A DNA stretch of 32,874 nt from a virus: IMG/VR virus record IMGVR_UViG_3300000553_000177; one strand, written 5' to 3'. Shown here in pieces: positions 7,152-32,063 of the stretch (positions are counted from its first letter, which is position 1; the number at the start of each line of letters is the position of its first letter). The translations under genes and the position numbers were made by a program. Below the pieces are notes generated by a model that saw only the letters and a list, made by a program, of their open reading frames with translations, was not told the origin of the DNA and searched no databases.

Positions 7152-7211
7152 ATTGGTAATTATTTTTTATATGCGTCTTTAATAGATGCGTCTTTAATTT
7201 ATAGGTTATCG

Positions 7212-7303
7212 TTACAGATTATATTTTGATGCTATTATTTTAGCTTCTAAATTTTTTTCAAATAACTTGTATCGTTAGATTCGTATATTTTAATATATTT
7301 CAT
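7212..7303 (-). pseudogene. collapsed family A cassette: an 18-codon minigene MKYIKIYESNDTSYLKKI* followed by an orphan ...ASKYNL* end motif
   Basis: manual translation; the ATGA overlap with gene 7300..7626 is retained and the middle of the cassette is deleted. Confidence 0.45.
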
Positions 7304-15706: not shown

Positions 15707-17077
15707 TTAAAGATTATATTTCTCAGAATCAATAAGATAATCATATTCATCTTCAATTTTAGGATTAAGAATATTGTGAGTACACAAAAATTTAAATTTT
15801 GTTGTCATAGGACTTTTATAATCATCCTTATCAAATCCATAAATATCTTTTTCTATGAACCATTGTTGAAATTCAAATGATTTGAACCATTGTAAAGTAT
15901 TATTATTCAATTCAATAGCAAGTCCAAAAAGGGTATATCTGCTTCTATCATAATCTAATTGAACTGTAAATTCACCTACAAAATCCGATAATTCTTTTTT
16001 CTTTTTGATTAATTCTAAATTATCAATTACAATCAATTTTGGAAAGATTTCATCAGGAGAATTAATATAATTTGTACAAACATTACTTACTATACTATTA
16101 ACTTCTTCAAAGTTACCTAGATTTTTATATTTTAAATCACCATATTCAAATTCATAAGAAAATTCATCAGAATCATAGATATTTTCTAATAAATCTTTGA
16201 AAGTTTTAACTTTCAAATTATGTTTTTTTATATAATCTATAATTTCTTGATAATTAAATGATAATTCTAAATTTTTCTTTGCATCATTACTATTTTCAAC
16301 ACTAAAAGGCAAAAGTTCAATTATTTGTTCGGCTGCTTTTTCAACTGCTCTTTCATTCTCCATTTCTATTTCACTCTTAATGTCTTTCAAATCTTCTTTC
16401 AATCCTAATTTTAAAAATAGTTCATAAATAGAACCTTCTTCTTCTGGATCTATATCAAAATCAAATGTTTCACCCAATATTTTAACTTCACTAAGTGTAT
16501 TGCCAGATAAATATGATTGAATATAATCATATTCATTATCATCCATTTCGTATGTATAATTATTATAATAGGATGAAATTTGCAACAAATAATTAATTAT
16601 ACCTTCTTCTATATTCATCATATTTTCTAAATCTCTAGAATTTATTAGAATAGTAAAATCAGATTCATTAAGAAAGTTACGATCATAATATTTGTATTTA
16701 ATCTCATAATCATCTTTATCCAATCCAATATAGTCTAAAACTTTTTCATAATTATCTTCAGTAATAGTAGATAAAATAACATCTAGATTTTCGGTCTGTT
16801 CTTCGACACTTTCATCAATAGGATTGTTCTTTAGATATTCTGCTTGTTTTAATTTTTTGAAATTCAAATCTTTAAATTTATGATTCTTTTGATTAATAGT
16901 TTTAATAATTTCAGAACGATTTTTCATATTTCGTTCGTCTGGCAATCTTTTTTTTAAAGCTTTAAGACCTTTTTGTAATACTTGTAAACTCTTATCAATA
17001 TTCTTTTTAATCTTAAAAGGCTTATGAGAATTTATTTTTATCGGAGTAAAATTTTCGTATGTTTTTATATATTTCAT
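15707..17077 (-). CDS. large family A member (456 aa), MKYIKTYENF...DSEKYNL
   Basis: ORF track; family termini enclosing a long acidic, repeat-poor body. Confidence 0.6.
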   Translation of the reverse strand: MKYIKTYENFTPIKINSHKPFKIKKNIDKSLQVLQKGLKALKKRLPDERNMKNRSEIIKTINQKNHKFKDLNFKKLKQAEYLKNNPIDESVEEQTENLDVILSTITEDNYEKVLDYIGLDKDDYEIKYKYYDRNFLNESDFTILINSRDLENMMNIEEGIINYLLQISSYYNNYTYEMDDNEYDYIQSYLSGNTLSEVKILGETFDFDIDPEEEGSIYELFLKLGLKEDLKDIKSEIEMENERAVEKAAEQIIELLPFSVENSNDAKKNLELSFNYQEIIDYIKKHNLKVKTFKDLLENIYDSDEFSYEFEYGDLKYKNLGNFEEVNSIVSNVCTNYINSPDEIFPKLIVIDNLELIKKKKELSDFVGEFTVQLDYDRSRYTLFGLAIELNNNTLQWFKSFEFQQWFIEKDIYGFDKDDYKSPMTTKFKFLCTHNILNPKIEDEYDYLIDSEKYNL

Positions 17078-17101
17078 TAAGATTAATCATTTTTACAATT
17101 A

Positions 17102-17530
17102 TCACAGATTATATTTTTCTGCATTCATATATAATTCTAATTCTTCTGATGTTAAATTTGGATATTTTAAATATAAATGATATGCTAAAAGTGCATCTTC
17201 TCTATTGTCTGTACTATATAGAAGGCCTTCGCTCATATATCTTTTCCAAAATGACAAACTCACTATATTACCATAATATTCATCATAATCTTTTTTACCC
17301 GTAAAAAAATCTTTAAAAGAATCCATACCTTTACTTGAATTTATTATTATTCTATATAAGATATACAGCGGGTGTTCTTTCAAAAAGTTAGGATTGAGCA
17401 TTATAACAGCTAATTTATAAGATTTATTTTCAAAATAATTTTTAATTCTCCACAAATAATATTTTTTATCAATATTAACTTTTTTGTATTTTGATTCAAA
17501 CAATAGTTCATATCTTTTTATAAATTTCAT
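17102..17530 (-). CDS. family A protein (142 aa), MKFIKRYELL...AEKYNL
   Basis: ORF track; motifs; ATGA overlap at 17527-17530. Confidence 0.6.
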   Translation of the reverse strand: MKFIKRYELLFESKYKKVNIDKKYYLWRIKNYFENKSYKLAVIMLNPNFLKEHPLYILYRIIINSSKGMDSFKDFFTGKKDYDEYYGNIVSLSFWKRYMSEGLLYSTDNREDALLAYHLYLKYPNLTSEELELYMNAEKYNL

Positions 17531-17772
17531 TCTTTACTTTTTAATTTGTGATGTACATAAGTTTTAATATGTTTATATATTGGTTTTGAATGAGTTAAAT
17601 CTATTCCATAATTATTGAAAATAAAATGAATAATAAATTCGATAACATGATCTTCTGTTATAGTTTTATGTGTTTTTTCAATATGTTTTAATGCTTTACG
17701 GAATGATTTTTTAATAATATTCCAATCAAAATTCATTAAACTTTCATTATATTTAGCATATTTAGTTATCAT
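17527..17772 (-). CDS. small protein (81 aa) starting MITKYAKYNESLMNFDW; a degenerate junction is embedded in-frame (apparent fusion)
   Basis: GCTAAATATAATGAAAGTTTAATGAA resembles the family A junction. Confidence 0.45.
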   Translation of the reverse strand: MITKYAKYNESLMNFDWNIIKKSFRKALKHIEKTHKTITEDHVIEFIIHFIFNNYGIDLTHSKPIYKHIKTYVHHKLKSKE

Positions 17773-18005
17773 AAATTATATTTTTTTACATCTCTTGAAA
17801 AATCTAATCTTTTTTTCAATTTTTTTAATTTTTCAATGATTTTTTCAATATCAATTTTTTCTAATGGAACTTTGCCGAAACCACTTATAGCCATATCTAA
17901 TATTATCATTTGTTCTCTAACTTTAGATGATAGTTTTTGAGTGATTTCATCATGCTCACTTCTATTAGATGGTTTAAATTTTTCATTGAATCTTTCTATT
18001 TTCAT
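17769..18005 (-). CDS. family A small protein (78 aa), MKIERFNEKF...VKKYNL
   Basis: ORF track; motifs. Confidence 0.6.
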   Translation of the reverse strand: MKIERFNEKFKPSNRSEHDEITQKLSSKVREQMIILDMAISGFGKVPLEKIDIEKIIEKLKKLKKRLDFSRDVKKYNL

Positions 18006-18232
18006 AAATTATATTTTTTTGCCTCCAAACGATTTTTTAATTCTTTCAATTTCTCTATTAAATTATCAATCTTATTGGAAGAAAGTTCATTTTCATCAAT
18101 ATTGAAATCTATTATAATATCTACCATATAAATATCCATTAAAATTATATCTGTTCTAATTTCATTTGCTAATTTTTGTAAATCTAAATCAAAATGAATT
18201 TCTGATTCATTAAATTTCCTAATTTTCATCAT
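18002..18232 (-). CDS. family A small protein (76 aa), MMKIRKFNESE...AKKYNL; a paralog of 17769..18005
   Basis: ORF track; shared ...IEKLKELKNRL / IEKLKKLKKRL segment. Confidence 0.6.
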   Translation of the reverse strand: MMKIRKFNESEIHFDLDLQKLANEIRTDIILMDIYMVDIIIDFNIDENELSSNKIDNLIEKLKELKNRLEAKKYNL

Positions 18233-18564
18233 AGATTATATTTTTTTGCATCTACTTCGTACTCTTCTATAAAATATCCAGAATCTAAACCTATAAAATG
18301 ATTATCATCCGTTAAAACTACAAAACATCTACCTGAAAGCATTACACCAGTTTCAAATTCAGCATACAACCTATATAATTTACCTTTAGTTAATTCCTTA
18401 GGTGCATCGTCATTACAATAAACATTTCTTAAAAACTTATCATTTTCAAGATTGAAAGGATTAAATTTTGTTTTAAGCCTAATTTGTTGCATAGATAGTC
18501 CTCTTGGACTTCTTTTAGATGATATTGCCTCATTTAAATTTTCATAATCAATCAAATGTTTCAT
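18229..18564 (-). CDS. family A small protein (111 aa), MKHLIDYENL...AKKYNL; the first gene of array 3
   Basis: ORF track; motifs. Confidence 0.6.
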   Translation of the reverse strand: MKHLIDYENLNEAISSKRSPRGLSMQQIRLKTKFNPFNLENDKFLRNVYCNDDAPKELTKGKLYRLYAEFETGVMLSGRCFVVLTDDNHFIGLDSGYFIEEYEVDAKKYNL

Positions 18565-18652: not shown

Positions 18653-19087
18653 ATGAATAAAAATAAGTATAACCTCTTTATAGACGACGAGCGTTTTCCG
18701 AACAAAGATGTTCCGGCAAGTGATAGTGTTTTTCACCTTACAGGTGATAATAAATATCGAGATTTAAAATGGATAATTGTTAGAAATTTTGGAGATTTCG
18801 TTAAAATTATTGAAGAAAGAGGTTTACCGTTGAGGTGCTCGATGGACCATGATTTAAATGATTTTCATTATTATCATTATCAGACTTATACAGTATATAC
18901 AGGAAAAATTGATTATACAGTTGTTGAAGGTACAGGACTTGAATGTGCTAAATGGCTCATTAACTATTTGATGGATAATGATTTAGATGCACCCGAAATT
19001 TTGATACATACTCAAAATACCGTTGGTGCTGAGAATATAAGAATGTTATTTAACGATTATGAAAAATCAAGAATTATTACATTATAA
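18653..19087 (+). CDS. hypothetical protein (144 aa) whose N-terminus, MNKNKYNLFIDDE, carries a KYNL/junction-like sequence in plus orientation
   Basis: ORF track; AAAAATAAGTATAACCTCTTTATAGAC resembles the junction. Confidence 0.5.
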   Translation: MNKNKYNLFIDDERFPNKDVPASDSVFHLTGDNKYRDLKWIIVRNFGDFVKIIEERGLPLRCSMDHDLNDFHYYHYQTYTVYTGKIDYTVVEGTGLECAKWLINYLMDNDLDAPEILIHTQNTVGAENIRMLFNDYEKSRIITL

Positions 19088-19373
19088 AAATTTTTATATT
19101 GGTGATTATTTTATTATAATCACAACTCCTGGTATATGGAATAGTTCAATGAATAATAATTGTCCACTAAATAGTAATATATCTTATCCTTATAAAGGAA
19201 GAATTAAAAATATATTGGCAAGTCAAGTGTATGGAAAAGTAATAATAGGAATGACAGAAGGTATATATGGATGGTCTTTAAGTTATTTAGTAGGAAAAGG
19301 TTTAATTATTCATGATGTAATAAAACAAAGAAAAGTAAAATTAATGAAAATAAAACAAGATTATGAAAAATAA
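19059..19373 (+). CDS. family B small protein, tail KQRKVKLMKIKQDYEK (the likely start is the internal Met near 19149)
   Basis: ORF track; the 5' end overlaps the previous gene. Confidence 0.45.
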   Translation: MKNQELLHYKNFYIGDYFIIITTPGIWNSSMNNNCPLNSNISYPYKGRIKNILASQVYGKVIIGMTEGIYGWSLSYLVGKGLIIHDVIKQRKVKLMKIKQDYEK

Positions 19374-19437
19374 AGACATGTTAGGTGAAATTGGTGATAA
19401 ATAATTTGTTGGAATATTAATAAAAATCAAAAATAAA

Positions 19438-20061
19438 ATGAAAATTCGTTGTGGATTCGTTAGTAATAGTAGCAGCAGTTCATTTATCATAAATGCTATT
19501 GATGGTTTTTCAACCGTAAAAAATGTTGCTGAATATATTATGGATAATGTTAGTTATAAAAGCTATATAACTGAACGAAAAACTTTAGAAAGTATTGATC
19601 CTGATACACCAGTTCATTTCAACGTTGGTGGTGAAGAAACTTATATACGTAAAGTTGATAATAAAATAGTCATAGTAACAACACAAAATATTACTTTTAA
19701 TTTATTTCATGAAAAATGTCTTGATAAAAAAGACTTAACAGAAGATTTTTATAGACAATTTGATTTTATTGAATCAGATGAAGATTATCCTCTTGAAGAA
19801 GGTGAGGAATATGAAATAATTAAAATGGATGATCCTAGAAACTTTACATATTTCTATGGTAAATTTGATGATTTTAATATATTGAAATATAATATTCTTG
19901 GTAAACATACATACTTACAGAAGGGTTGTCCCAGATGCAAAACATCATTTGCATCTGGTTGGAGACTAAAAGGTGGGAGAAGAATTTGTGATTGTCAAGT
20001 ACAAAAATATAAAGACAGAATAACTAGGAAAGAAAAAATAATGAAAATCAATGAAAAATAG
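19438..20061 (+). CDS. family B protein (207 aa), MKIRCGFVSNSSSSSFI..., tail RKEKIMKINEK; a paralog of the next gene
   Basis: ORF track; N-terminus shared with 20051. Confidence 0.55.
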   Translation: MKIRCGFVSNSSSSSFIINAIDGFSTVKNVAEYIMDNVSYKSYITERKTLESIDPDTPVHFNVGGEETYIRKVDNKIVIVTTQNITFNLFHEKCLDKKDLTEDFYRQFDFIESDEDYPLEEGEEYEIIKMDDPRNFTYFYGKFDDFNILKYNILGKHTYLQKGCPRCKTSFASGWRLKGGRRICDCQVQKYKDRITRKEKIMKINEK

Positions 20062-20650
20062 AATAGGATTTGTAAGTAATTCATCTTCAAGTAGTTTTAT
20101 TGTTTTAAAAGATGCAATAACTGGTAAGCAAAAGGATATGATAGTAAATTTTTCAGAGTGGGCTAAATTTTTTATAGCACTTGATGAAGAAAAGAATTAT
20201 AAAGATGCTAAGGAATATGCAACTGAAATGGAATTATATCAAAGTGATGAATATTCAGAACAAAGTAACACTAGATTAAAATATAAATTTGAATATTATG
20301 ATGATGGATATTGGCATTTTGAAGAAACTGATGATTATATTTTTGGTGCAACCACAATGGACAATTTTGGAATGGACGAATATTTTAATTATATTAAAAT
20401 TGATCCTGATTATGTAAGATGGGATGAAGGTTGGAATGATGATCCATCACAAAAAGATCTTGAATTTATCAAAAATAAAAAACAAAGGTATCGTAAATAT
20501 AAATCGCGGTTGCAATTACTGGTGGTGAAGCTCGGTATGTCCTTAACAAGGAAACTGGTGAGATTACACTATTTGTTGGTCCAAAAATGTTTATTCCAGA
20601 TCCTCGCAAAGAAGTTATTGTTAAGAGGGTACTTGATGAGAAATCAGTAA
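20051..20650 (+). CDS. paralog of 19438 (MKNRIGFVSNSSSSSFIV...). The 3' ~150 nt of this ORF runs out of frame across the MVP fragment, so it is probably chimeric or disrupted
   Basis: ORF track; a second reading frame over 20503-20748 encodes an MVP repeat. Confidence 0.4.
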   Translation: MKNRIGFVSNSSSSSFIVLKDAITGKQKDMIVNFSEWAKFFIALDEEKNYKDAKEYATEMELYQSDEYSEQSNTRLKYKFEYYDDGYWHFEETDDYIFGATTMDNFGMDEYFNYIKIDPDYVRWDEGWNDDPSQKDLEFIKNKKQRYRKYKSRLQLLVVKLGMSLTRKLVRLHYLLVQKCLFQILAKKLLLRGYLMRNQ

Positions 20651-20748
20651 AATTATGGTTTCCTGATAGTATTGATGCAGCACAGCACAATAAACAATTA
20701 GAATCTGAAATGAATCTAAATGGAATGCTAGTGTATGTCCATTATTAA
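20503..20748 (+). pseudogene. isolated fragment of an MVP N-terminal repeat (81 codons, no start)
   Basis: ITGGEARYVLNKETGEITLFVGPKMFIPDPRKEVIVKRV matches the MVP repeat [27 protein letters not shown]; locally elevated GC. Confidence 0.5.
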
Positions 20749-20769
20749 TAAAAACAAGGTTAATTCTTT

Positions 20770-21054
20770 ATGAAAGATAATTATATAGTATGTTGTAAGA
20801 ATGTTGATGAATCGGTAAAGATTCATAAGTTTTTATTTTTGAATGGTATATATTGGAGGGATACAAGGGATGTTATTAGGAGTGGTACTAGATGGTTATG
20901 GTTAAGGATAAGTCAGGGACAAATACAAGCGTGTGGTGAGTCTTACAGATATTTAGATGGTTATTATGAGCATATTAATATATGTGATTACACATTTATA
21001 ACGGTAGATAAGTTAATGAGAAAATTAAAATTGCAGAGATTAAATGAGATATGA
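20770..21054 (+). CDS. family B small protein (94 aa), MKDNYIVCCKNVDES..., tail MRKLKLQRLNEI
   Basis: ORF track. Confidence 0.55.
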   Translation: MKDNYIVCCKNVDESVKIHKFLFLNGIYWRDTRDVIRSGTRWLWLRISQGQIQACGESYRYLDGYYEHINICDYTFITVDKLMRKLKLQRLNEI

Positions 21055-21374
21055 AGATAGATGTGAAGATTGGTGAGTTAGACAAGATGGCATATGATTT
21101 ATATGTTGATGCGACAATGAGAGCGAATAAAATATTATGTAAGAAGAACAAGTTGATATATGTCAAAGTTGATTTAATAACTGTTTTAAAGAAAGGTGAA
21201 TACTATGATATTACTTATCCAGTTGAAAGATTAGTTTGTGTAAGGTATGGTCCAGGTAAGCATGATATAATGTTATTTAATGACGGTTATTATGGTTATG
21301 AATCTATTTGGGAATATTTTTATACGGTAAAGGAATCAAGGAGAATGAAATTAAAAAGATTGTTGTTGATATGA
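21051..21374 (+). CDS. family B small protein (107 aa), tail ESRRMKLKRLLLI
   Basis: ORF track; ATGA overlap. Confidence 0.55.
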   Translation: MKIDVKIGELDKMAYDLYVDATMRANKILCKKNKLIYVKVDLITVLKKGEYYDITYPVERLVCVRYGPGKHDIMLFNDGYYGYESIWEYFYTVKESRRMKLKRLLLI

Positions 21375-21610: not shown

Positions 21611-22030
21611 ATGAACATATTTGAAAAGTTAAATGTTCCTGAGAACACTAATGGATTTATTAATAAGCAAGTGATATGTATAAAGGATAAGAAATTTATA
21701 TATGCACAGGTTAATAGTGAAAAGAAACCTTATAGATTAGTAAGGTGGAGATTTCTTGTTGGTAAAGAAAGTTTTATAAAGGATACTAGGAGATATAGAA
21801 TTGGTTCACTTATGAGGTGTTATGAACATAGTGCTATAAAGAGATTTATTAATAGATGTAGGAGAATATATTCTAATAAACTTGTATCAGATTATCCTTG
21901 GAAATGTGATATAATTGATAATAAAGGTCGGTTTATCATAATGAATTGTGAGAAAGCGTTAAAATATTTTCGAGTTGTTGATTTACAAGATATTAGGCAA
22001 AAGAAATTATTAAACTTGAAATCATTATAG
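21611..22030 (+). CDS. family B protein (139 aa), tail IRQKKLLNLKSL; its 3' end overlaps the 3' end of a convergent family A gene by 6 nt
   Basis: ORF track. Confidence 0.55.
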   Translation: MNIFEKLNVPENTNGFINKQVICIKDKKFIYAQVNSEKKPYRLVRWRFLVGKESFIKDTRRYRIGSLMRCYEHSAIKRFINRCRRIYSNKLVSDYPWKCDIIDNKGRFIIMNCEKALKYFRVVDLQDIRQKKLLNLKSL

Positions 22031-22330
22031 ATTATATTTTGTTGCATTGAGTTCTAATTCATATTCTTCTATTTCATCTTCATGTAGTTTTCTTTCTATT
22101 TGGTCATGTCTACACCATAGAGTTAGACCTTTACTAAATTGAACTGCGTAAGGTACATTACTATAATCATTATAAATTATTTTAGCACTTCTAGAATCTT
22201 CGAAAGATTTTAAAAATTCTCTCTTTATTAACACATAATCATCTACTTTATAATTAATAATATCTAGAAATTCTGGGTTCTCGTCATACCACCCTGCGGG
22301 AGATTCGTACATTTTTAAGTGTTTCATCAT
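22025..22330 (-). CDS. family A small protein (101 aa), MMKHLKMYESP...ATKYNL
   Basis: ORF track. Confidence 0.6.
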   Translation of the reverse strand: MMKHLKMYESPAGWYDENPEFLDIINYKVDDYVLIKREFLKSFEDSRSAKIIYNDYSNVPYAVQFSKGLTLWCRHDQIERKLHEDEIEEYELELNATKYNL

Positions 22331-22644
22331 AGATTATATTTTTTTGCATCTATTTTTATTTGTAATTCATCTAGAAGATCTTGAATATCATCTGATTGCA
22401 TAACAATATTATTTAATAAATTTTTTTCATCACAAGGTTGTGTTTCTTCATCATTATATTCATTTATAAGAACTAACCATGGTGTAAGAGTATATCTTTT
22501 TGCTATATAGTATTCTTTTTTATCATGTGCTGTAATTTCCCATATATAATACCAATACCATATAGTATCTTGTCCTATACTTTCTTCAAGTAGGAATTGT
22601 TTAGGCTTTATCTTCAGTTTCTCAAATAATTTAATATGTTTCAT
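22327..22644 (-). CDS. family A small protein (105 aa), MKHIKLFEKL...AKKYNL
   Basis: ORF track. Confidence 0.6.
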   Translation of the reverse strand: MKHIKLFEKLKIKPKQFLLEESIGQDTIWYWYYIWEITAHDKKEYYIAKRYTLTPWLVLINEYNDEETQPCDEKNLLNNIVMQSDDIQDLLDELQIKIDAKKYNL

Positions 22645-23009
22645 AAGTTATATTTTGCTGCATCTACATACATTTGTATGTCTTCTTTATTTTGAGAATA
22701 GTATGCTATATTATTTCTTGTAACATTTTCAGCAAAGTATTCTGTTGTATCATCTTTATAATTTCTGATAGTGAATTTAGATTCAAATTCTGGTGGCACA
22801 TATTCATATTGTACTATATATTTAGTTTTATTATTATCTGCTGGAAAAATATTAAATATTTGACCAATATTTGTATTTAGAAAATTTATAAATGCTGAAT
22901 TTGTTACTATATTATTAGTTTGTAAGATAACATAATCATCTATTTCTGGTAGTGAACCATGAACTTTATTCCATTTATTTTCATTTTCGTACAATTTAAT
23001 ATATTTCAT
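22641..23009 (-). CDS. family A protein (122 aa), MKYIKLYENENKWNKV...AAKYNL
   Basis: ORF track; its first 16 aa plus the junction are identical to those of 23214..23501. Confidence 0.6.
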   Translation of the reverse strand: MKYIKLYENENKWNKVHGSLPEIDDYVILQTNNIVTNSAFINFLNTNIGQIFNIFPADNNKTKYIVQYEYVPPEFESKFTIRNYKDDTTEYFAENVTRNNIAYYSQNKEDIQMYVDAAKYNL

Positions 23010-23501
23010 AGGTTATATTTTTTTGTTACCATGTGGATACTATTCTCTTCTAAGTATTTACGAATTTCATCACGATTTTTCTTAATATTTATTGGTTGAT
23101 ATTCATATCCAAAAATCGCTGTACTTGTTTTAGATTTCGGTGTTATTATATCCATTGTTGTATTATACTGAAAATTACCAAGAAATGGATCTGCATTGTA
23201 ATCAATTAAAATCTTAGCAACTAGCAGCACTCATTAAAGGAGTCCATTTACCTGTATCTTGAATATCTTCTGGATTTGCACCATGTTCTAACATATATTT
23301 TACAACTTCAAAATTATTCATTCTAGTCGCCCAATTTAATGTTCCACAAAAATTTGGATCAGCACCATTTTCAATTGCCAATTTAATTTTATCAAAATTC
23401 ATATACCATTTATCAGCACCTATTTTGAAATGTGTCCATGTTGCAGCATGAAGAACTTTATTCCATTTATTTTCATTTTCGTACAATTTAATATATTTCA
23501 T
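23006..23501 (-). pseudogene. ankyrin-repeat family A member split by a frameshift near 23214-23232 (ORFs 23214..23501 and 23006..23230)
   Basis: ANK consensus GADPNFCGTLNWA..., ...VVKYMLEHGANPEDIQDTGKWTPLMSAA, then LLVAKILIDYNADP in the other frame; ends ...TKKYNL. Confidence 0.5.
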
Positions 23502-23588
23502 AGGTTATATTTTTTTCTGTGGTATGCTGTGGTATAAAGTTCATAAATATATTTCTTACTTCGGTTGCTGGTTTTATATTTGTGAAAA

Positions 23589-24029
23589 TCACAAATTATA
23601 TTTTATTGCATCTACATATGTATCTACGTCTTCTTTATTGTGTGAGTAGAAGAATATATTTTCTTCTGGTATCCATCTTCTATATGTTATTTTTGAATTT
23701 TCTTTTCTAATATATCTTATACTATTATAAAGTCTTGCTGGAGTTGCTATGTTTTTTTCCCAAAAATATTCCTCAAACAAATATTTAAATTTTGGTGGCA
23801 CAGTATCATATTCTATTTGGTATGCATTTCTGTTATTTTGTTCGAAATTGTCTATCTTCTTGGTTATATTACATATATTAGTTCCTATAAATTTTTTGAA
23901 TTCGGGATCAAAAGAAGGTTCTAAAAGAGGATGGTCATTTTTATTTATAAGAGAAGATACGATGGCATAGTCATAAATTTGTGGTTTAGATTTATTTTTA
24001 TATTCATTTAATTTCATTAGGTATTTCAT
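23589..24029 (-). CDS. family A protein (146 aa), MKYLMKLNEY...AIKYNL; a hairpin overlaps its stop
   Basis: ORF track; hairpin GTGA-AAA-TCAC at 23582-23592. Confidence 0.6.
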   Translation of the reverse strand: MKYLMKLNEYKNKSKPQIYDYAIVSSLINKNDHPLLEPSFDPEFKKFIGTNICNITKKIDNFEQNNRNAYQIEYDTVPPKFKYLFEEYFWEKNIATPARLYNSIRYIRKENSKITYRRWIPEENIFFYSHNKEDVDTYVDAIKYNL

Positions 24030-24030
24030 A

Positions 24031-24318
24031 TTATAAATTATATTTATTTACATCTTCTATATATTCTAGTTCTTTTCTGTTTTTGGAGTATTCAATTATG
24101 TCTTCTCTTTTAAAATAAATAATTCTATTACCAGATACGATGGCATATTCGGGTGTATTATATGCTATATATCTTATTTTAATAATTTTTCCTATAATAA
24201 AATTAGATTTTTCACGGTACTGCCAAAGCACTCGGTCATCGTAAACGATAACATAATCATCAATTTGGGGTGGAGTTTCTTTTTTTTCGAATATAATAAA
24301 GGGTGTTATATGTTTCAT
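24031..24318 (-). CDS. family A small protein (95 aa), MKHITPFIIFE...VNKYNL
   Basis: ORF track. Confidence 0.55.
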   Translation of the reverse strand: MKHITPFIIFEKKETPPQIDDYVIVYDDRVLWQYREKSNFIIGKIIKIRYIAYNTPEYAIVSGNRIIYFKREDIIEYSKNRKELEYIEDVNKYNL

Positions 24319-24320
24319 TG

Positions 24321-24728
24321 TTATAGATTATATTTTAGAGTATCTCTCCATAGTTCAAAGTCATTTAGTTTATTTATAAAGTTAAAGGTTTCTGTGTATT
24401 TAAAATAAAAATCTTCACCATTATGGATTGGTAAAATCGTTTTCATAAATGTTACAAGGTCTTTCATTTGGTCACTATATGTTTTTGCATCATCGTTCAT
24501 TACGAATGATTTGAAATTTCTATTATCTGTTATTAATGTGCTTAATTTGTATTTTGAATTTGTAAAAACAATGGCGGCATATTCGTCACTTGTTTCTTTT
24601 TTTATTTCAAATTCAAATTCATTTGTAATTTCAATTATTTTTTCATATAGTTGTATTAGTAATGGATTTGTTTCATCATATGATAATTTTTCATAAACTT
24701 TTTGATAAATCGTTTTAATATATTTCAT
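24321..24728 (-). CDS. family A protein (135 aa), MKYIKTIYQK...TLKYNL; the first gene of array 4
   Basis: ORF track. Confidence 0.6.
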   Translation of the reverse strand: MKYIKTIYQKVYEKLSYDETNPLLIQLYEKIIEITNEFEFEIKKETSDEYAAIVFTNSKYKLSTLITDNRNFKSFVMNDDAKTYSDQMKDLVTFMKTILPIHNGEDFYFKYTETFNFINKLNDFELWRDTLKYNL

Positions 24729-24765
24729 TCATTTATATATAAAATTTTTATTTTAGGAAAAAGAG

Positions 24766-25026
24766 TTGTATATTTATTATATGGGAGTAATTTGTGAGAA
24801 TTATAGTAAATGTAAATTAATAGAAGGTTTTGGTCCTTTTGTTTGTAGACATCATTTTGAGCATGATTATCAAAATGCTTGTGATGTATCAAATTGTGGT
24901 TGGTTAAAACATATTTTGATAAATGATAAGTCATTAAAGATAAAGATTAATTATATTGCGGTTTGTGTAGATTATAATAGGTTAGTAAGGAAGGAAAAGT
25001 TAAAGAGGATTAATGAAAAATTATAA
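24766..25026 (+). CDS. Cys-rich family B small protein (86 aa), tail VRKEKLKRINEKL
   Basis: ORF track. Confidence 0.5.
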   Translation: MYIYYMGVICENYSKCKLIEGFGPFVCRHHFEHDYQNACDVSNCGWLKHILINDKSLKIKINYIAVCVDYNRLVRKEKLKRINEKL

Positions 25027-25280
25027 AAGGTAATTATATCATACAATGTAAGAATGTTGATGAATCTATAAAGGTTCAAAAAATTTTATTTTCTGTTGGT
25101 TCAATTGTTAATCTTAGGTATGGTTGGTTAAGAATAAGTGAATCTAAAATTATAGCGTTAGGAGAGCCTTACAAACATTTGTATTGTTTTTATATTAACA
25201 TTAAGAATTATAAATATATGACTGCTAATATGTTAATGCGGAAAATAAAATTGGAGAAGTTAAAATCAATTAATATATGA
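25013..25280 (+). pseudogene. paralog of 20770..21054 (KGNYIIQCKNVDESIKVQ...MRKIKLEKLKSINI) with an insertion of about 13 nt after ATGAAA that shifts the frame; no in-frame ATG
   Basis: manual translation; compare ATGAAAGATAATTATATAGTATGTTGTAAG (20769) with ATGAAAAATTATAAAAGGTAATTATATCATACAATGTAAG (25013). Confidence 0.45.
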
Positions 25281-25465
25281 AGAAGGAAAAGTTAATATGT
25301 GAGTATAGTGATAAGTGTACTGTTGGTGTTAAGTGTGTACATTATCTTGTACATGATAAGACAACAGGTTGTGGTCACTTTGGTTGTGATCAGGTGGATA
25401 ATGCAGTTTGTGTGAGTATTAAAGAGATAAGGAAGAGAAAGTTAGAGAAGTTAAATTCATTATAA
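25277..25465 (+). CDS. Cys-rich family B small protein (62 aa), tail IRKRKLEKLNSL
   Basis: ORF track; ATGA overlap. Confidence 0.5.
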   Translation: MKKEKLICEYSDKCTVGVKCVHYLVHDKTTGCGHFGCDQVDNAVCVSIKEIRKRKLEKLNSL

Positions 25466-25783
25466 ATTGTATTTATTAGCGTCAAGTCTCATTTCAACAT
25501 ATTGTACGGCTTCTTGTATATAATTAGTTTGAAAAACAATATTAATGACATTGGAGGGACAGCGAAAAGAAGTGTCATAATCAATTTTTTTTAGTTTGGT
25601 GTTTTTGTCAGGATAAAAGTCACAGTATAGTTTGGGCCAGGTTGAGTATCTTTTGATTATAATAAAATCATTATCTTCTGGTATAAATTTTAATATTTCA
25701 TATATATCAAAATGAGTTTCTACTTCTTCTTCTACTATAAATTTTTCATAATTAGAATTTTCGAATGTTTTTAAGTATTTCAT
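25460..25783 (-). CDS. isolated family A small protein (107 aa), MKYLKTFENS...ANKYNL
   Basis: ORF track. Confidence 0.6.
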   Translation of the reverse strand: MKYLKTFENSNYEKFIVEEEVETHFDIYEILKFIPEDNDFIIIKRYSTWPKLYCDFYPDKNTKLKKIDYDTSFRCPSNVINIVFQTNYIQEAVQYVEMRLDANKYNL

Positions 25784-25836
25784 AGAAATTATATATAAAA
25801 ATTTTTTATTAAATTATTTTTTATTATATTTAGATT

Positions 25837-26154
25837 ATGAAAATGTTTAAAATAGAAGAAGGTTTGGTATTATACTGTAAGAAGGACACTCATATTTTTA
25901 ATAAAGAAAAGATAAATAAAGGATCGGAGTGTAAAATTGTTGCAGTTCAAAGATCTACTATATTTTTTGATAACACTTGCCAAATAGATTATGATAAAAA
26001 GGGACTTGCTATAAGTATTAAGAAAAATGGATCTGATTTTTCTTTATTATTTATGAGCTTTAGGAGCTATGACTACGAGTATATTTGGGATCATTTTATA
26101 CTAGAGGAATTATATTTAAGGAAGCAAAAACTAAAAAGGCTGAGTAGTTTATGA
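25837..26154 (+). CDS. family B small protein (105 aa), tail LRKQKLKRLSSL
   Basis: ORF track. Confidence 0.55.
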   Translation: MKMFKIEEGLVLYCKKDTHIFNKEKINKGSECKIVAVQRSTIFFDNTCQIDYDKKGLAISIKKNGSDFSLLFMSFRSYDYEYIWDHFILEELYLRKQKLKRLSSL

Positions 26155-26176
26155 ACTATATTAATAAGGAAGAATT

Positions 26177-26776
26177 ATGAGAAAAATTAGTTTTTTTATT
26201 CGTAGTAATAATATTGAGGATTATAAAGAGTTTATAATCTTAGCTGATCGGTATGGGTTTAATACTAGTAATTTAGAAAATTTAAGAATAGATGATCAGG
26301 GAAAACTTTTTGTAAAAAAGTTTGGTGTTCGTTTCCAACCGATTGGAATTGGAATCATCAGTGATATACCTGATCATGTTGTGGACACAAAATTTGATCT
26401 ATGTTCAAGGGTTTTTTTGGCTTATGAAAATTATGACATTGCAAGGGAAGTATTAAAATCATCTGATATGGAAAAATATATTAGGATTTATAAACATAGA
26501 CTTAGAAAATTCAAACATCATATTCAAGGATTATTAAAAGATAAATTAAAGAAGTATCCATATTTTGAGATTGGTGAGGAGGTTTATAGTGACATGGATG
26601 TTAAATATCGTTGGATAAAAGAGTTGGGTTATACTTATTTTGTAATATTGGGTTATACTTATTTTAGTAGTGGTTGGGAAATAAGAACACAGAAAGGTTA
26701 TTCTTTTTTTGAGACTTTGAATCCTAGGTATAAGAAGAAAATTCGTAAGTATAAGTTGAAGAAAATTGGTTTATAG
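26177..26776 (+). CDS. family B protein (199 aa), tail IRKYKLKKIGL
   Basis: ORF track. Confidence 0.55.
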   Translation: MRKISFFIRSNNIEDYKEFIILADRYGFNTSNLENLRIDDQGKLFVKKFGVRFQPIGIGIISDIPDHVVDTKFDLCSRVFLAYENYDIAREVLKSSDMEKYIRIYKHRLRKFKHHIQGLLKDKLKKYPYFEIGEEVYSDMDVKYRWIKELGYTYFVILGYTYFSSGWEIRTQKGYSFFETLNPRYKKKIRKYKLKKIGL

Positions 26777-26784
26777 AATATTTT

Positions 26785-27090
26785 ATGATTTTAAAAATTG
26801 GAGATATAGTTAGGGTTAAATCAATCCAGTGGTATAACAAGAATAAAAAATATTGTGTACATGGTCCTGGCCCGTATGGATTTGTAGTCAAGAATACAAC
26901 AGTTAATTTTACAGACCATATGAGTACATATTGTGGTAAAATTGGTATCGTTGTTGGTTATTTACCTTTTGGTTATGATATTCAATTTGAAGATGAATCT
27001 CAATATTATCGTTACGTATGGACAAATGATATGTTGGATTTGGAGAAGTTAATACGTAAGAAAAAATTAGAAAAGATTAAAAAAATGTAA
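26785..27090 (+). CDS. family B small protein (101 aa), subfamily GD.V.VKS..WYNKNK, tail IRKKKLEKIKKM
   Basis: ORF track; paralog of 31249..31530 and 31791..32063. Confidence 0.55.
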   Translation: MILKIGDIVRVKSIQWYNKNKKYCVHGPGPYGFVVKNTTVNFTDHMSTYCGKIGIVVGYLPFGYDIQFEDESQYYRYVWTNDMLDLEKLIRKKKLEKIKKM

Positions 27091-27093
27091 AAT

Positions 27094-27393
27094 ATGAAAG
27101 TAAATGATATTATAATTTGCAAAAAAAATTATAAAATTTATAAAAAACATGCGAGATATAAAATCACAAATATAATTATCAATGATTCTATATTTCATCA
27201 AGATTGGATAGTATGTGGGGACGCAGGTATGCGAGCCCAGTTTGGTTTTGGTTTGCATTTTTCTTTGATAGAAGTAGAAAATTGTAATTATTTTTATAAT
27301 TATTTTTATACTTTGAAGGAATATCGTAAATTGAAATTAGGGAGAATAAATGAGAGTTCATTTAGAAATAAATGGAGAAAAATATGGTTTTAA
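27094..27393 (+). CDS. family B small protein (99 aa), tail YRKLKLGRINESS
   Basis: ORF track. Confidence 0.5.
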   Translation: MKVNDIIICKKNYKIYKKHARYKITNIIINDSIFHQDWIVCGDAGMRAQFGFGLHFSLIEVENCNYFYNYFYTLKEYRKLKLGRINESSFRNKWRKIWF

Positions 27394-27599
27394 TATGTGT
27401 ACATTCGGCTAAAGGTTTTACTATTGGTAAAATATATAATAACTTTAAAAATTCTCATGTGTCTGCGGATTTTTTTGTTGGCACTGATGATAACGGTAAA
27501 TCTATTTGGGCACTTAAAGAATATTTTACACCACTATCTTTACATAGAAAATTAAAATTAAAAAAATTAGATGGCATTAGTGAGAGCAAAGATCTATAG
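27372..27599 (+). CDS. family B small protein (75 aa), tail HRKLKLKKLDGISESKDL; converges on an orphan family A KYNL end motif
   Basis: ORF track; GATCTATAGATTATATTTTT is a palindromic Leu-stop junction. Confidence 0.5.
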   Translation: MEKNMVLICVHSAKGFTIGKIYNNFKNSHVSADFFVGTDDNGKSIWALKEYFTPLSLHRKLKLKKLDGISESKDL

Positions 27600-27718: not shown

Positions 27719-27928
27719 TTAATCACTACCTGCTTTGGATGCATTTATGTGTGATTCACTAAATCCGTGTGAAGAACTATGTGAACTTGAAGATGAATGT
27801 GAAGAAAATGAATGTGAAGATGAGGAAGAATGTGAAGAAGATGAACTGTGTCCACCGCCACCTCCTCTTGGAAAAAGGGGTGATGTAATCATAAACATAA
27901 ATGCAATAATAATACTAATTTTTTTCAT
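27719..27928 (-). CDS. secreted His/Ser-rich low-complexity protein (start taken at MKKISIIIAFMFMITSPLF)
   Basis: signal peptide, then G5-(HSSSSS)n repeats; the antisense Glu/Cys-rich ORF is a mirror artefact. Confidence 0.45.
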   Translation of the reverse strand: MKKISIIIAFMFMITSPLFPRGGGGGHSSSSSHSSSSSHSFSSHSSSSSHSSSHGFSESHINASKAGSD

Positions 27929-28159
27929 ATTGTTTTTTTTAAGTGAGTGAATATTAATTAAACATGATTGAATAAACAACAATAGTAACAACTGTTGTCA
28001 CGAACAAAATTGCAACAACTAGCTGCAAATTGCTAACCAAAACTTCCTTTTCTAATACATTTTTCATATTTGTTTTCGTTTATAATGCAAAGATAAGGAA
28101 AATTATTAAAAGAAAAAAAAATAAAAGGGAGTCTTTTGAACTCCCTTATAATAAGAACA

Positions 28160-28924
28160 TTAAATTTCTATTTGTTGAACAACCCAAAAATCACTTGCTA
28201 AATTTTTATTTGTCAAATAAGAATAAGGAATATAAAAATATCCTTTATCACCCCAACTTGTTCCCCAGCTATTCATTGTAATAAACCATTGTTTAGTATC
28301 ATCATATCCACAGCACATTACAGCGTGGCCACCGAGTATTGATTCATATGGTCCTGGCATTGGAACTATACCAGTTTTTGCTACAGAGTCACTTTCAAAT
28401 GATGAGTAAACAGTAAACCCATAAACAAAAGGAAATCCACTAGCAAGTGTACCTTTCATTTGATCTAAAGTTTGGGTAACCGCTTGATATTTAACTGCTT
28501 GATGTAATAACGCTTCTGTGTAGGATTTGGTTGTAGGTTTAGTTTTAAATTTACTTATAATATATGGCCATGTAGTTTCAGTACAAGCACCTTGTAGATT
28601 TAGTGTTTTAATACCATCACGAATTTCAGCACCTGCATCTTGTTTTACTGTTCCTTCAATAACTCTTTCATTATAATAAATAAATAGTCTTGATGGTTCA
28701 AATTGAATTTTAGATTTTTGTTTAATTTGATCAAAACGATGTGCAGCTGCGATTGCATTTGCAGTACATGATCCTAAATTTGATTGATCCACAACGGGTG
28801 GACAATTTGTTCTCAAATCAATTTTAGGTGGTAAAGATTTTAATATGCTTTCTGAGACTGTAAATTGATAATCTCTAAAATCTGGAATTTGTGGCTTCCA
28901 GCCATACCTTTGAATTTTTCTCAT
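28160..28924 (-). CDS. papain-like cysteine peptidase (C1 family), no signal peptide
   Basis: Q...GSC (DQSNLGSCTANAIAAA), His (GGHAVMCCGYDD) and Asn/Trp (NSWGTSWGDKGYFY) active-site motifs. Confidence 0.65.
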   Translation of the reverse strand: MRKIQRYGWKPQIPDFRDYQFTVSESILKSLPPKIDLRTNCPPVVDQSNLGSCTANAIAAAHRFDQIKQKSKIQFEPSRLFIYYNERVIEGTVKQDAGAEIRDGIKTLNLQGACTETTWPYIISKFKTKPTTKSYTEALLHQAVKYQAVTQTLDQMKGTLASGFPFVYGFTVYSSFESDSVAKTGIVPMPGPYESILGGHAVMCCGYDDTKQWFITMNSWGTSWGDKGYFYIPYSYLTNKNLASDFWVVQQIEI

Positions 28925-29032: not shown

Positions 29033-29441
29033 TTCTGGAGCATTAAAGAAGATGAAAAACAAGCAATTGAAAATCACTTATAAATTATATTTTTCTATAT
29101 CTCTTTGAAATGGATATGAAGTGGATAGGGTTTTTAAAGAAGTTGCTAGTGGAATGAATGATAATAGAAAAGAATTAAATAAATTACTTGAAATTAAATA
29201 TAAATATATAGTTATAGAACATAAAGATAGGTTAACTAGATTTGGCTTTAATTACTTGGAAACTTTATTGTTCAGACTAGGAACAGAAATAATAGTAATC
29301 AATAGGGATAGAGAAGATGAAACAGATTTAATTAAAGATTTTATATCAATTATCACATCATATTGCTGTAGATTATATGGAATGAGACGATGTGAAACAA
29401 AAAAAGAAAAAATATTAGAGGTAATAAATGATAACCATTAA
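29033..29441 (+). pseudogene. tnpA: IS607-family serine recombinase TnpA: an N-terminally truncated and disrupted remnant. The C-terminal ~105 aa are intact from a GTG at 29121
   Basis: NGYEVDRVFKEVASGMNDNRKELNKLL...IVIEHKDRLTRFGFNYLE...SIITSYCCRLYGMRR matches the IS607 TnpA C-terminal region. The upstream frame (..KEDEKQAIENHL*) is interrupted by a 20-25 bp junction-motif-like insert at 29079-29103. Confidence 0.6.
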
Positions 29442-30723
29442 ATTAAAATACAAATCCAACACTGATTTTCAGGATTTTCTTTCAAACCTTCAAAGACAAT
29501 TCTCCAATGTCTATAGATATAGTTATAATAGATTTTATGATGGTTTATCAAAAAAAGAAATTTACCACCTCATTCCATCTCTAAACAACGTAGAACTCAT
29601 TAAAGGTAGATTAATTAATGATTGTATTGATTTTGCTTACAGATTATATGAAAAAGATAAAAAATCAAACCATAAATCAATCTTCGGCGGTAAAAAGAAT
29701 TTCATCCTGAAATGTAAAGAAAAATTAACAAATGAACAATTTTCACAGAAAAGGTTAATATCGTTATATTTTCAAGGTGAAACTGCTAGATCAGGTAATA
29801 GAAATTTTAACCTTGATATCCTTAATAACACAATAACATTTAAATATAATAAACAATTCCATTTTGATTTATCTGTTAAACCATCTAAAAACCAACTAAA
29901 ACAATTAATCGAACTTCAGGATCTATGTAATCAAAAGAAATCAAAATTTACAATCACTTTAAGTCATGAATTTATTAATATTAGTTTTGAACCAACAAAG
30001 CATGAAGTGATTGATTTAATTGATGATAGGTTTGTTGGAATTGATTTAAATCCAACAAATATTGGAATGTCCATTTGTAATTCCAAGATGGAAGTGATTG
30101 ATAGTTATGATTTTGAATTCTCTGAAATCATAAACAAGATAAAAAAATCAAAGGTAGCAAGTAATTCCAAGGAAATGAAATATTTGAATAATAAATTGGA
30201 TTATGAAATATTGAATATAAGTAAAAAAATATCAGGCATATCCAAACATTATAAATGTAAATTTATATTTATAGAGGATCTAGAATTTAAAAGTAAAAAT
30301 GAATGGAATAACAGGTTATTAAAGAATTTATGGAAAAGAAATATTTTCATTCAGAATTTAGAAAAGAGATGTGGGATAGCCAATCAGAGGTTATTCAAGG
30401 TTAATCCGGCATATAGTTCATTTATAGGTAATTGTATGTATGATATTGTAGATCCTGTAAATTCTAGTATGGAAATTTCTAGAAGGGGTTATGAAATAAT
30501 AATAAATAAGTCAAAGAAATTTTATCCAGTAGTTTGGTTAAAAGAGTCATTAAAACACCAATGGAAGGAAAAGGTTAGTGATATACCAGATAGTTGGAAA
30601 GAGTTATTCGATTTAGTAAAAAACTTGAAATTGAGTTATCGAGTTTCATTAAAGGAGGATGTAAATGATTTTAATGTTTTTAGTAAAAAAGTTAGGATGT
30701 ATGATATTTATCAATTTTCTTGA
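29428..30723 (+). CDS. tnpB: IS607-type TnpB (OrfB / Fanzor-like RuvC nuclease), 431 aa
   Basis: RuvC-I GIDLNPTN, RuvC-II FIFIEDLEF and a later D in a degenerate zinc-finger region; position after tnpA; AGAGG 8 nt before the ATG. Confidence 0.6.
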   Translation: MITIKLKYKSNTDFQDFLSNLQRQFSNVYRYSYNRFYDGLSKKEIYHLIPSLNNVELIKGRLINDCIDFAYRLYEKDKKSNHKSIFGGKKNFILKCKEKLTNEQFSQKRLISLYFQGETARSGNRNFNLDILNNTITFKYNKQFHFDLSVKPSKNQLKQLIELQDLCNQKKSKFTITLSHEFINISFEPTKHEVIDLIDDRFVGIDLNPTNIGMSICNSKMEVIDSYDFEFSEIINKIKKSKVASNSKEMKYLNNKLDYEILNISKKISGISKHYKCKFIFIEDLEFKSKNEWNNRLLKNLWKRNIFIQNLEKRCGIANQRLFKVNPAYSSFIGNCMYDIVDPVNSSMEISRRGYEIIINKSKKFYPVVWLKESLKHQWKEKVSDIPDSWKELFDLVKNLKLSYRVSLKEDVNDFNVFSKKVRMYDIYQFS

Positions 30724-31248: not shown

Positions 31249-31530
31249 ATGAGTGCAGGATATAAATATAAGATAGGTGATGTTGTTTATATCAAAGATT
31301 TAAATTGGTTCAAAAAACATCAGGGATGGGAATTTGGTGTAATGTTTATCAGCAAATCTATGTTTGAACATTGCGGTAAAAAGGCAATTATCACTAATGA
31401 ATTTGGTGGTTATAAATATGTGGTAGATATAGATAATCGCCATATTTATGCTGAGAAAATGTTTGAAACATTACGAGATGTTAGAAAAAATAAATTAAAT
31501 AAATGGACTTCAGTAAGATACAACACATAA
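31249..31530 (+). CDS. family B small protein (93 aa), subfamily GDVVYIKDL.WF, tail VRKNKLNKWTSVRYNT
   Basis: ORF track. Confidence 0.5.
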   Translation: MSAGYKYKIGDVVYIKDLNWFKKHQGWEFGVMFISKSMFEHCGKKAIITNEFGGYKYVVDIDNRHIYAEKMFETLRDVRKNKLNKWTSVRYNT

Positions 31531-31805
31531 GTTTTACAACTGCTAAAGAGGCAGTTATAGTTGCTAAATTTCTTCAAAGCCTTGACTATAAGATTAAAAA
31601 AGAATATTTGAAAGAATCCTTCTATGAATGTAATTTACCTTTTGGTAATTTTGAAATTGCTCTTCTCTACTACTATTATGGATTCACTAAGCTTGGAAAC
31701 GGGGAATGGCGTTGTTCTAATGATGGTGGTGTTATATTTACATATTCAACAAAGGCTAAACATTTAATTAGAAGAGAAAAATTGAAAAGGTTAAACAGTT
31801 TGTAA
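31503..31805 (+). CDS. family B small protein (100 aa), tail IRREKLKRLNSL
   Basis: ORF track. Confidence 0.5.
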   Translation: MDFSKIQHISFTTAKEAVIVAKFLQSLDYKIKKEYLKESFYECNLPFGNFEIALLYYYYGFTKLGNGEWRCSNDGGVIFTYSTKAKHLIRREKLKRLNSL

Positions 31806-32063
31806 CTTTTTAAGTTTCATTTTTCTCATAGTTTTTAAATCATCCAACATATAATCTTGAAATACCCATTCATCACCTGCTATATCCAATAGGTAAAAAT
31901 CAGAATGGGCTGCTGTAACTTGTGCTCGCATGCCACAATACTGTTTCATTTCAGAAGTGAAACAATGTTGACCTTGCCGGCTAATACAATCATCAAAATC
32001 TTTGTTTTTATTATACCATTTCAAAGATTTTATAACAACAACATCACCCTCCTTGTATTTCAT
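31791..32063 (-). CDS. family B small protein (90 aa), MKYKEGDVVVIKSLKWYNKNK..., tail MRKMKLKKLQTV
   Basis: ORF track; paralog of 26785..27090. Confidence 0.55.
   Translation of the reverse strand: MKYKEGDVVVIKSLKWYNKNKDFDDCISRQGQHCFTSEMKQYCGMRAQVTAAHSDFYLLDIAGDEWVFQDYMLDDLKTMRKMKLKKLQTV

Follow-up and report, generated by a model that had tools for sequence, protein, structure and literature searches.

Ankyrin-repeat (ANK) proteins encoded by tailed phages, i.e., Ankyphage ANKp and the ANK proteins of Wolbachia phage WO, are the described proteins to which the gene presented here can be most directly compared; ANK repeats are enriched in symbiont-associated phages (10.1101/608950; PMC9203015), and two of the Ankyphage ANK proteins described carry signal peptides (10.1101/608950). 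The gene studied here is located at positions 23006–23501 on the minus strand of a 32,874-nucleotide (nt) viral DNA stretch (IMG/VR record IMGVR_UViG_3300000553_000177; "the window" denotes this whole stretch). Like the phage proteins mentioned above, it represents a small ANK accessory gene of a tailed phage and shows Pfam ANK signatures; however, it differs from them in that it encodes no signal peptide, carries the short terminal peptides (hereafter, tags) of a multigene family that we designate family A, lies in a tandem array of such genes, and presents as a pseudogene. The sequence relation is only generic (30% identity to a phage WO fragment). The locus is a defective member of the known phage-encoded ANK proteins within an undescribed tagged multigene family; our reading, to which we assign a probability of roughly 0.7, is that it represents a recent pseudogene that originated from a 17-nt deletion in an ANK gene of a phage array, and is neither a recoding signal nor a demonstrated eukaryote-targeting effector.

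The array in which this gene lies can be compared with two systems of T4-type phages. The hyperplastic regions of T4-type genomes contain small novel open reading frames (ORFs) that are shuffled via repeated flanking motifs, the promoter early stem-loops (PeSLs) (PMC2839356, PMC4122927). Family A arrays likewise represent long runs of small, fast-evolving, mostly orphan genes, with boundary repeats as homology for insertion, deletion, and replacement; the likeness includes a 64-nt junction repeat around one cassette at the locus studied here and hairpins that close gene runs, similar to the PeSL stem-loops. However, while a PeSL consists of an intergenic promoter and a stem-loop, the family A boundary repeat is coding (i.e., it specifies C-terminal and N-terminal peptides), and no promoter signal was detected. 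The T4 internal proteins (IPI, IPII, IPIII, and Alt) share a short N-terminal capsid-targeting sequence (PMC3012670, PMC5694885); family A similarly comprises otherwise unrelated proteins with a short common N-terminal peptide, and T4-type head genes are found on related contigs. Family A differs by a conserved C-terminal peptide and by dozens of members per genome; this comparison is an analogy only. The T4 propeptide ends in the prohead-protease motif (L/I)-x-E, at which it is removed; the window ANK gene has L-Y-E at residues 6–8, but residue 6 across family A is T, K, L, or Q, and the match to the protease site is weak. With ordinary deletion pseudogenes in multigene families of large viruses, the locus shares an out-of-frame internal deletion and two recognizable halves, with no essential difference; other array members have also decayed (e.g., a 50-amino-acid (aa) fragment in the related locus L009 and a split ANK gene in the related locus L008).

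An ankyrin-repeat gene with family A termini

The two ORFs 23214–23501 and 23006–23230, which overlap by 17 nt in different frames (Table 1), are two halves of one real ANK gene. The 95-aa upstream ORF begins MKYIKLYENENKWNKV and ends TPLMSAASC before its stop codon (in longer form, MKYIKLYENENKWNKVLHAATW...GKWTPLMSAASC),; the family A tag MKYIKLYE is followed in it by a capping pair of helices, by repeat 2, and by helix 1 of repeat 3. The 74-aa downstream ORF contains LLVAKILIDYNADP and ends TKKYNL (in longer form, ..VLLVAKILIDYNADPFLGNFQ...IHMVTKKYNL, followed by the stop codon); it carries helix 2 (VAKILIDYNADP) of repeat 3, then a fourth, degenerate repeat, followed by two helices at the C-terminus and the tag KKYNL with the stop codon. 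The 95-aa ORF alone scored above the Pfam curated cut-offs for Ank_2 (34.4 bits; cut-off 27.3), Ank_4 (33.9; 22.7), Ank (31.8; 21.1), and Ank_3 (31.0; 22.3), and an artificial join of both ORFs matched Ank_2 in Pfam at 1e-9 over residues 36–108. The AlphaFold2 model of P0001, the closest intact homologue (77.5% aa identity to the 95-aa ORF), presented a predicted local distance difference test (pLDDT) score of 89.5 and paired helices at residues 36–44, 54–60/64–72, and 88–95/98–106; Foldseek matches to this model were headed by DARPins (TM up to 0.81 on the target) and viral ANK proteins, the best viral match being an "ANK domain containing protein" of an uncultured Caudovirales phage. The ANK assignment made in a first-pass annotation of the window, which relied on the sequence alone, is thus borne out by the Pfam scores and by the ANK/DARPin fold of the P0001 model.

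A search of a collection of 5.8 billion proteins identified 19 clear relatives (P0001–P0019; 41–71% identity, 148–221 aa), all of which are single ORFs except P0007, which is the identical 95-aa stump. In intact relatives (~170 aa), two canonical repeats follow a capping pair of helices and precede a fourth, degenerate repeat and a final two helices at the C-terminus; complete relatives start MKYIKxFEN or MITxFKIFEN and end (K/R)(K/R)YNL. The P0001 gene (L008:5001-5510) shows 81% nt identity to the window gene. In addition, a protein-guided scan of JGI metagenome contigs yielded one partial homologue (L031, 63%), while a scan of IMG/VR with P0001 yielded no relative. Conservation of ANK members across diverged phages indicates that they are functional there.

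The termini of the window gene are those of family A (MKYIKLYE at the start and TKKYNL at the end), as had been recognized in the first-pass annotation, which described the ANK body as embedded in a family A scaffold; the gene lies in a co-directional array with ATGA overlaps. While the termini hold, a recent insertion of the domain between them does not, as all 17 close homologues compared carry termini of the same kind; the ANK gene is therefore an established sub-family of family A. In the P0001 model, the N-terminal tag (residues 1–7) is disordered (pLDDT below 50) and the C-terminal tag is located at the end of the last helix, suggesting that the tags are appendages outside the ANK fold.

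Table 1. Positions in the window of the features discussed in the text.
Feature	Position	Strand	Description	Basis
5′ fragment of ANK gene	23214..23501	minus	95 codons + TAA	ORF list, Pfam, homology
3′ fragment of ANK gene	23006..23230	minus, +1 frame	74 codons from GTG; frame open to family A tag	
Junction of 17-nt deletion	23220..23221	minus	ambiguous by 1–2 nt	DNA alignments to L008, L031, and L009; protein alignment
Premature TAA	23214..23216	minus	produced by the frame change	
64-nt direct repeat, upstream copy	23453..23516		minus-strand reading: ..KKYNL, stop, ATG, 16 codons MKYIKLYENENKWNKV	repeat search, 100% identity
64-nt direct repeat, downstream copy	22961..23024		spans the real ANK C-terminus and the first 16 codons of the neighbour	repeat search
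Downstream neighbour, family A gene, 122 aa	22641..23009	minus	start overlaps ANK stop (CTATGA)	
Spacer upstream of ANK gene, 87 nt	23502..23588	minus	ends in orphan ..RKKYNL and stop without attached ORF	
Vault-like protein, 428 aa	13074..14360	minus	MVP shoulder (7.9e-28) and vault repeat domains, long coiled C-terminus	

The deletion and its rival explanations

DNA alignments of the window gene showed a single 17-nt gap relative to L008 (the P0001 gene) and relative to L031; the gap at the same spot relative to L009 is 29 nt, as L009 has an insertion there. Where intact homologues read KWTPLMSAA-xD-GYV(D/E)I-AKILIDY, the window gene passes from SAAS directly to (L)VAKILIDY; in the P0001 model (helices 88–95 and 98–106), the missing residues (C/N/S-D-G-Y-V-D/E-I of intact homologues) make up the turn of repeat 3 together with the adjoining ends of its helices 1 and 2. 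The lesion is thus an out-of-frame internal deletion and not a one-base slip. The first-pass annotation had proposed a frameshift near 23214–23232; the position of the frame change was correct, but the cause is a 17-nt deletion at 23220/23221 rather than a single-base shift. This deletion in repeat 3 shifts the frame and creates a stop codon, and at most a 95-aa stump can be made.

Database records list the stump protein for nine contigs, and seven of these loci could be retrieved (two from JGI and five from ENA samples). All seven are 100% identical to the window across the ~700 nt compared, lesion included; the deletion allele is thus present in every contig recovered (eight assemblies, counting the window). 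Relative to the P0001 gene, the ratio of nonsynonymous to synonymous substitution rates (dN/dS) is 0.22 for the upstream half and 0.15 for the downstream half, and the downstream frame contains no further stop in a sequence of 27% GC; as both halves still show the dN/dS of purifying selection and the downstream frame has remained open, the loss is recent. We infer from these observations that the ANK gene has lost its function. No intact allele closer than 71% identity was found in the collection of 5.8 billion proteins. A gapped exact pattern for the intact or the deleted allele returned 0 matches in JGI metagenome contigs; because the deleted allele also went unreturned, even though the pattern matches the window, these contigs evidently do not include this phage, and the scan is uninformative on the intact allele.

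A break that is merely a sequencing or assembly artefact, with the real gene intact, would be in line with the indels that are possible in metagenomic contigs and with the sister contig L006, which ends in Illumina adapter sequence; nevertheless, it is highly improbable, as exactly the same sequence recurs in seven other contigs, which derive from seven samples and from two assembly pipelines, and the 17-nt lesion lies in non-repetitive sequence and is not a homopolymer slip. With seven loci at 100% identity and a lesion outside any homopolymer, assembly error is excluded for practical purposes. We give just as little credence to programmed +1 ribosomal frameshifting that would fuse both ORFs into a full-length protein: although the two ORFs overlap and the second stays open as far as the family A C-terminus, the intact homologues represent one frame with 17 more nt, the shifted product would still lack six conserved residues in the (C/N)DGYV(D/E)I segment of repeat 3, and the overlap (GCU GCU AGU UGC UAA) contains no codon able to re-pair in +1 and no slippery site. 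That a second, unrelated family A ANK gene (L008 4279–4681) is also split could be taken to favour such recoding; however, the lesion there is of another kind (a GGGG run with one extra G) and may reflect either a true frameshift or a read error in one Logan assembly. A split gene that is still functional, in which the 95-aa stump, with or without a 74-aa piece re-initiated at the GTG at 23230, keeps or alters binding and in which truncation is tolerated or selected, is unlikely, though less so than the two explanations above. Both pieces are intact ORFs with low dN/dS, which is equally expected of a very recent pseudogene; the deletion allele is the only allele seen in the eight assemblies, including the window, but the only homologue found with a split architecture carries that same allele (P0007); and while the stump still scores above the Ank_2 cut-off and the GTG overlaps the end of the upstream ORF, the stump stops after helix 1 of repeat 3 (helix positions from the P0001 model), without the C-terminal cap that ANK stacks normally need for stability. 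Among the three options initially offered for the frameshift, pseudogenisation is therefore retained, while sequencing error is contradicted by the identical sequence in seven other contigs and a programmed shift by the unsplit homologues. Several points weigh against a recent pseudogene in a phage array. A minority intact allele may be present in the population; the 95-aa stump, which still holds ~2.5 repeats, might retain some binding activity; and the 74-aa ORF could in principle be re-initiated at its GTG start, which lies 14 nt before the premature stop. The direction of the gene conversion proposed below for the junction repeat would follow from family conservation only, no close homologue of the neighbouring gene having been found, and the 32.9-kb window contains no capsid, terminase, or portal gene, such that its phage identity is drawn from one shared protein and from the family A arrays in viral contigs.

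With regard to the role of the intact protein, the first-pass annotation had suggested that the cassette system can carry eukaryote-targeting domains, and the ANK protein could accordingly be an effector as in the symbiont phages (Ankyphage ANKp, Wolbachia phage WO), with a host that would live with or inside a eukaryote. In addition to the enrichment of ANK repeats in such phages, the only match among GenBank phages came from Wolbachia phage WO, a fragment that aligns over 53% of the query at 30% identity. We nonetheless consider this role improbable, since no family member carries a signal peptide, as opposed to two of the described Ankyphage proteins; neither a signal peptide nor a transmembrane segment was found in the ANK family (maximum 10-residue N-terminal Kyte–Doolittle hydropathy ≤1.23 in 19 members, well short of the values of signal peptides or transmembrane segments). 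Furthermore, the related contigs are T4-like or huge phages, published huge-phage relatives are predicted to infect Bacteroidetes, and the gene is dispensable in this phage. No other eukaryote-like domain, including the leucine-rich repeat (LRR), F-box, and U-box domains for which a survey of other cassettes had been proposed, was found in the 66 other window ORFs scanned; in the other 46 window ORFs, the only Pfam matches were CYTH and DUF5416. The suggestion of eukaryote-targeting cassettes was thus not supported, given the bacteriophage context and the lack of a signal peptide and of any other eukaryote-like domain in the window. ANK repeats represent a generic protein-binding scaffold, and a eukaryotic target is therefore an assumption rather than a finding. 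Most likely, the intact ANK protein is a cytoplasmic, dispensable accessory protein that would bind a bacterial or phage protein during infection; a literature search on ANK anti-defence proteins found nothing relevant.

Outside the window, an 804-aa leucine-rich-repeat protein (LRR_8, 6e-53) without family A tags adjoins a family A array in a 55-kb IMG/VR contig (L022 7417–9831); eukaryote-like repeats are thus present in this phage lineage, albeit outside the tagged family.

The junction repeat and the family A arrays

The two perfect copies of the 64-nt direct repeat are spaced 492 nt apart and bracket exactly one cassette (492 bp), while other cassette junctions are only 62–78% alike. The coding-strand sequence of the repeat is AAAAAAATATAACCT-ATG with 16 codons after it (MKYIKLYENENKWNKV), and the first 16 residues are identical in the ANK gene and its downstream neighbour (22641–23009). 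The upstream copy lies at the end of the 87-nt spacer, which begins with the 3′ arm of a hairpin (23578–23596) that encloses the stop codon of the upstream gene (23589–24029). Residues W13 and L17 (WNKxL motif) are nearly invariant in ANK homologues, while relatives of the 122-aa neighbour have no WNKxL and present other sequences before a conserved P-x-I-x-DYVI. The repeat probably results from a recent gene conversion or unequal recombination in which the ANK 5′ end and the junction were copied onto the neighbour; this direction is suggested by the retention of W13 and L17 in the ANK family and their absence from the relatives of the neighbour. The only hit in a search for homologues of the 122-aa neighbour was this same protein, so that the search showed no N-terminus from before the conversion. 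The perfect repeat is also a substrate for loop-out of the cassette. Two contigs showed assembly edge effects: L005 breaks off at its 3′ end precisely where the 64-nt repeat finishes, and L006 ends (~1340–1360) in Illumina adapter sequence (AGATCGGAAGAGCGTCGTGTAGG).

The diverged locus L009 contains an ANK homologue (48% identity), a truncated paralogue, and then a 36%-identical homologue of the downstream neighbour; the ANK-then-neighbour order is old. In this locus (10599–12022), four adjacent genes start MITKFKIYE (three continue with N and one with V), including the 50-aa truncated paralogue of the next gene. Homogenisation of junctions is a general property of family A arrays, and the 5′ ends in L009 represent concerted evolution and decay. 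In the reading that we propose, the ANK gene is one member of a family A array in a large AT-rich phage, with a product that would bind a host or phage protein in the cytoplasm during infection; the 17-nt deletion has left at most the stump of this product, and a recent gene conversion or recombination event would have placed copies of the junction and of the first 16 codons of the ANK gene at the head of its neighbour, as an example of the recombination at junction homology that shuffles and erodes family A arrays.

The hairpin at 23578–23596 (minus strand; -6.3 kcal/mol, z = -3.25) is one of three such structures (with ~6519–6540 and ~7646–7665, all minus strand; -6.3 to -10.9 kcal/mol, z -3.3 to -5.3), each enclosing the stop codon, with the codons just before it, of the gene that closes a family A run (e.g., AUUUGUGA-UUU-UCACAAAU). 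These hairpins may represent terminators or processing sites; a consensus scan for promoters and terminators around the locus was uninformative, as shuffled sequences yielded more promoter-like sites than the real one.

Besides the ANK gene, 22 window ORFs, all on the minus strand, end K-Y-N-[LMV], and most of these start MK[YH][IL]Kx[FY]E; family A in the window thus contains 23 genes with unrelated bodies (76–456 aa), in runs located, e.g., at 197–2014, 6533–8573, 15707–18564, and 22025–25783 (minus strand). The family consensus consists of an N-terminal MK[YH][IL]Kx[FY]E and a C-terminal [KN]KYN[LI], with genes in head-to-tail arrays, often with ATGA stop/start overlaps. Both the terminal Leu codons (CTG, TTA, CTA, CTT, and TTG) and the Tyr codons (TAT and TAC) vary, indicating that the termini are conserved at the protein and not at the DNA level. 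In a set of 509 ORFs drawn from the window and 19 related loci, 118 end [YF]N[LIVM] (background tripeptide frequency, 0.4%), and 67 of these 118 match the strict pattern MK[YH..][ILMV]Kx[FY][ED] at residues 1–8. IMG/VR viral contigs are likewise filled with family A genes; in L029, 20 members lie within 13.8 kb. Family A has no counterpart in Pfam or PHROG. Pfam searches with ten other small ORFs of families A and B (family B is described below) gave no family for nine and only sub-threshold noise otherwise, tblastn with two family A proteins yielded no match in GenBank phages, and a literature search on the KYNL motif found nothing relevant.

Family A is a very large undescribed tagged family that represents approximately one quarter of the ORFs in this AT-rich large-phage lineage. 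By analogy with the T4 internal proteins, its termini could be address tags, such that MKxIKxFE (and perhaps KKYNL) would send dozens of unrelated small proteins to the prohead or another delivery route for injection with the DNA, as a fast-evolving arsenal against host defences, and the ANK protein would be one such binder, lost as its target is absent here; we regard this idea as tentative and rather doubtful. Should the tags prove to be delivery signals, family A would represent a rich source of phage effectors. Taken alone, the ANK locus is an ordinary, recently dead accessory gene; its value is that of a dated, well-resolved case of family turnover, in which tags frame a standard protein-binding fold, array junctions recombine (as indicated by the 64-nt repeat), and members are lost by small deletions.

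A second group of small proteins, family B, carries a C-terminal basic motif (R/K-x-(x)-K-L-x-K/R-L/I; e.g., ..RKEKLKRINE..), and ~21 ORFs match. These genes are mostly located on the strand opposite to family A (e.g., plus strand 14785–15253, 19059–21374, 24766–27599, and 31249–31805; minus strand 31791–32678), and are also found in L008 and in IMG/VR loci.

Phage context and other window genes

We infer that the element is a large AT-rich (~26% GC), T4-related or huge bacteriophage. The vault-like protein encoded at 13074–14360 is 47–51% identical to ORFs in the huge-phage genomes LR756500 (462 kb), LR756501, and LR756503 (735,411 bp), and represents a vault/SPFH-like protein conserved in huge phages; the matches sit near one end of each of these three records. 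The largest huge-phage genomes of Al-Shayeb et al. (2020) are predicted to infect Bacteroidetes (PMC7162821). With regard to the Mahaphage clade of huge phages (PMC7162821; genomes >200 kb, placement by terminase or capsid phylogeny), this was the only shared protein found, and the 32.9-kb window includes no terminase or capsid gene; in the 40-kb stretches examined of LR756500 and LR756501, no family A genes were found. In IMG/VR, an exact pattern for the family A junction matched 17 stretches, located in viral contigs that reach 243 kb and have 22–29% GC; nearly all hold family A runs. Family A-bearing IMG/VR loci encode a T4-type portal (Portal_T4, 3.7e-63; adjoining family A genes in L015) and gp32, as well as a 5′-3′ exonuclease, DNA polB, and intein-bearing ClpB-like ATPases; the L009 contig encodes S1, NusG, thymidine kinase, a CCA-adding enzyme, and a tRNA-synthetase fragment. 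No GenBank phage was matched in a megablast search with 24.9 kb of the window, and no tRNA was found in the window.

An origin from a giant eukaryotic virus was considered because of the low GC content, the many ANK matches in nucleocytoplasmic large DNA viruses (NCLDVs), and one NCLDV contig (L011) among the distant ANK matches; this origin was rejected, as the L011 match is only 27% identical and its contig contains no family A genes, family A contigs carry the T4 portal and gp32, and the genes overlap by ATGA.

Additional observations concern other genes of the window and of related loci. In a 163-kb family A-bearing viral contig (L014 3625–9749), two ClpB/AAA+ ATPase genes are interrupted by inteins with LAGLIDADG endonuclease domains. 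An IS607-like pair was identified in the window at 29121–30723 (plus strand), consisting of a truncated serine-recombinase fragment (106 aa; Resolvase, 2e-7, from profile position 34) and an overlapping 431-aa ORF with TnpB-like features and no Pfam match; OrfB_IS605/Cas12f-like TNB proteins are found in related IMG/VR loci. On the minus strand, a gene encoding a 90-aa protein with a hydrophobic N-terminus, a Gly run, and HSSSSS repeats (27719–27991) adjoins a gene encoding a papain-family cysteine protease (28160–28924; Peptidase_C1, 8.5e-16). Two genes encode signalling-type domains in this phage accessory region, i.e., a stand-alone response-regulator receiver domain (15311–15667, minus strand; 7e-9) and a cREC_REC "cyclic-phosphate processing receiver" domain protein (18653–19087, plus strand; 6.6e-17; phrog_1479). 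Finally, two adjacent paralogues located at 19438–20650 (plus strand) begin M-K-x-R-x-GFVSNSSSSSFI (phrog_7397, 2.5e-6).

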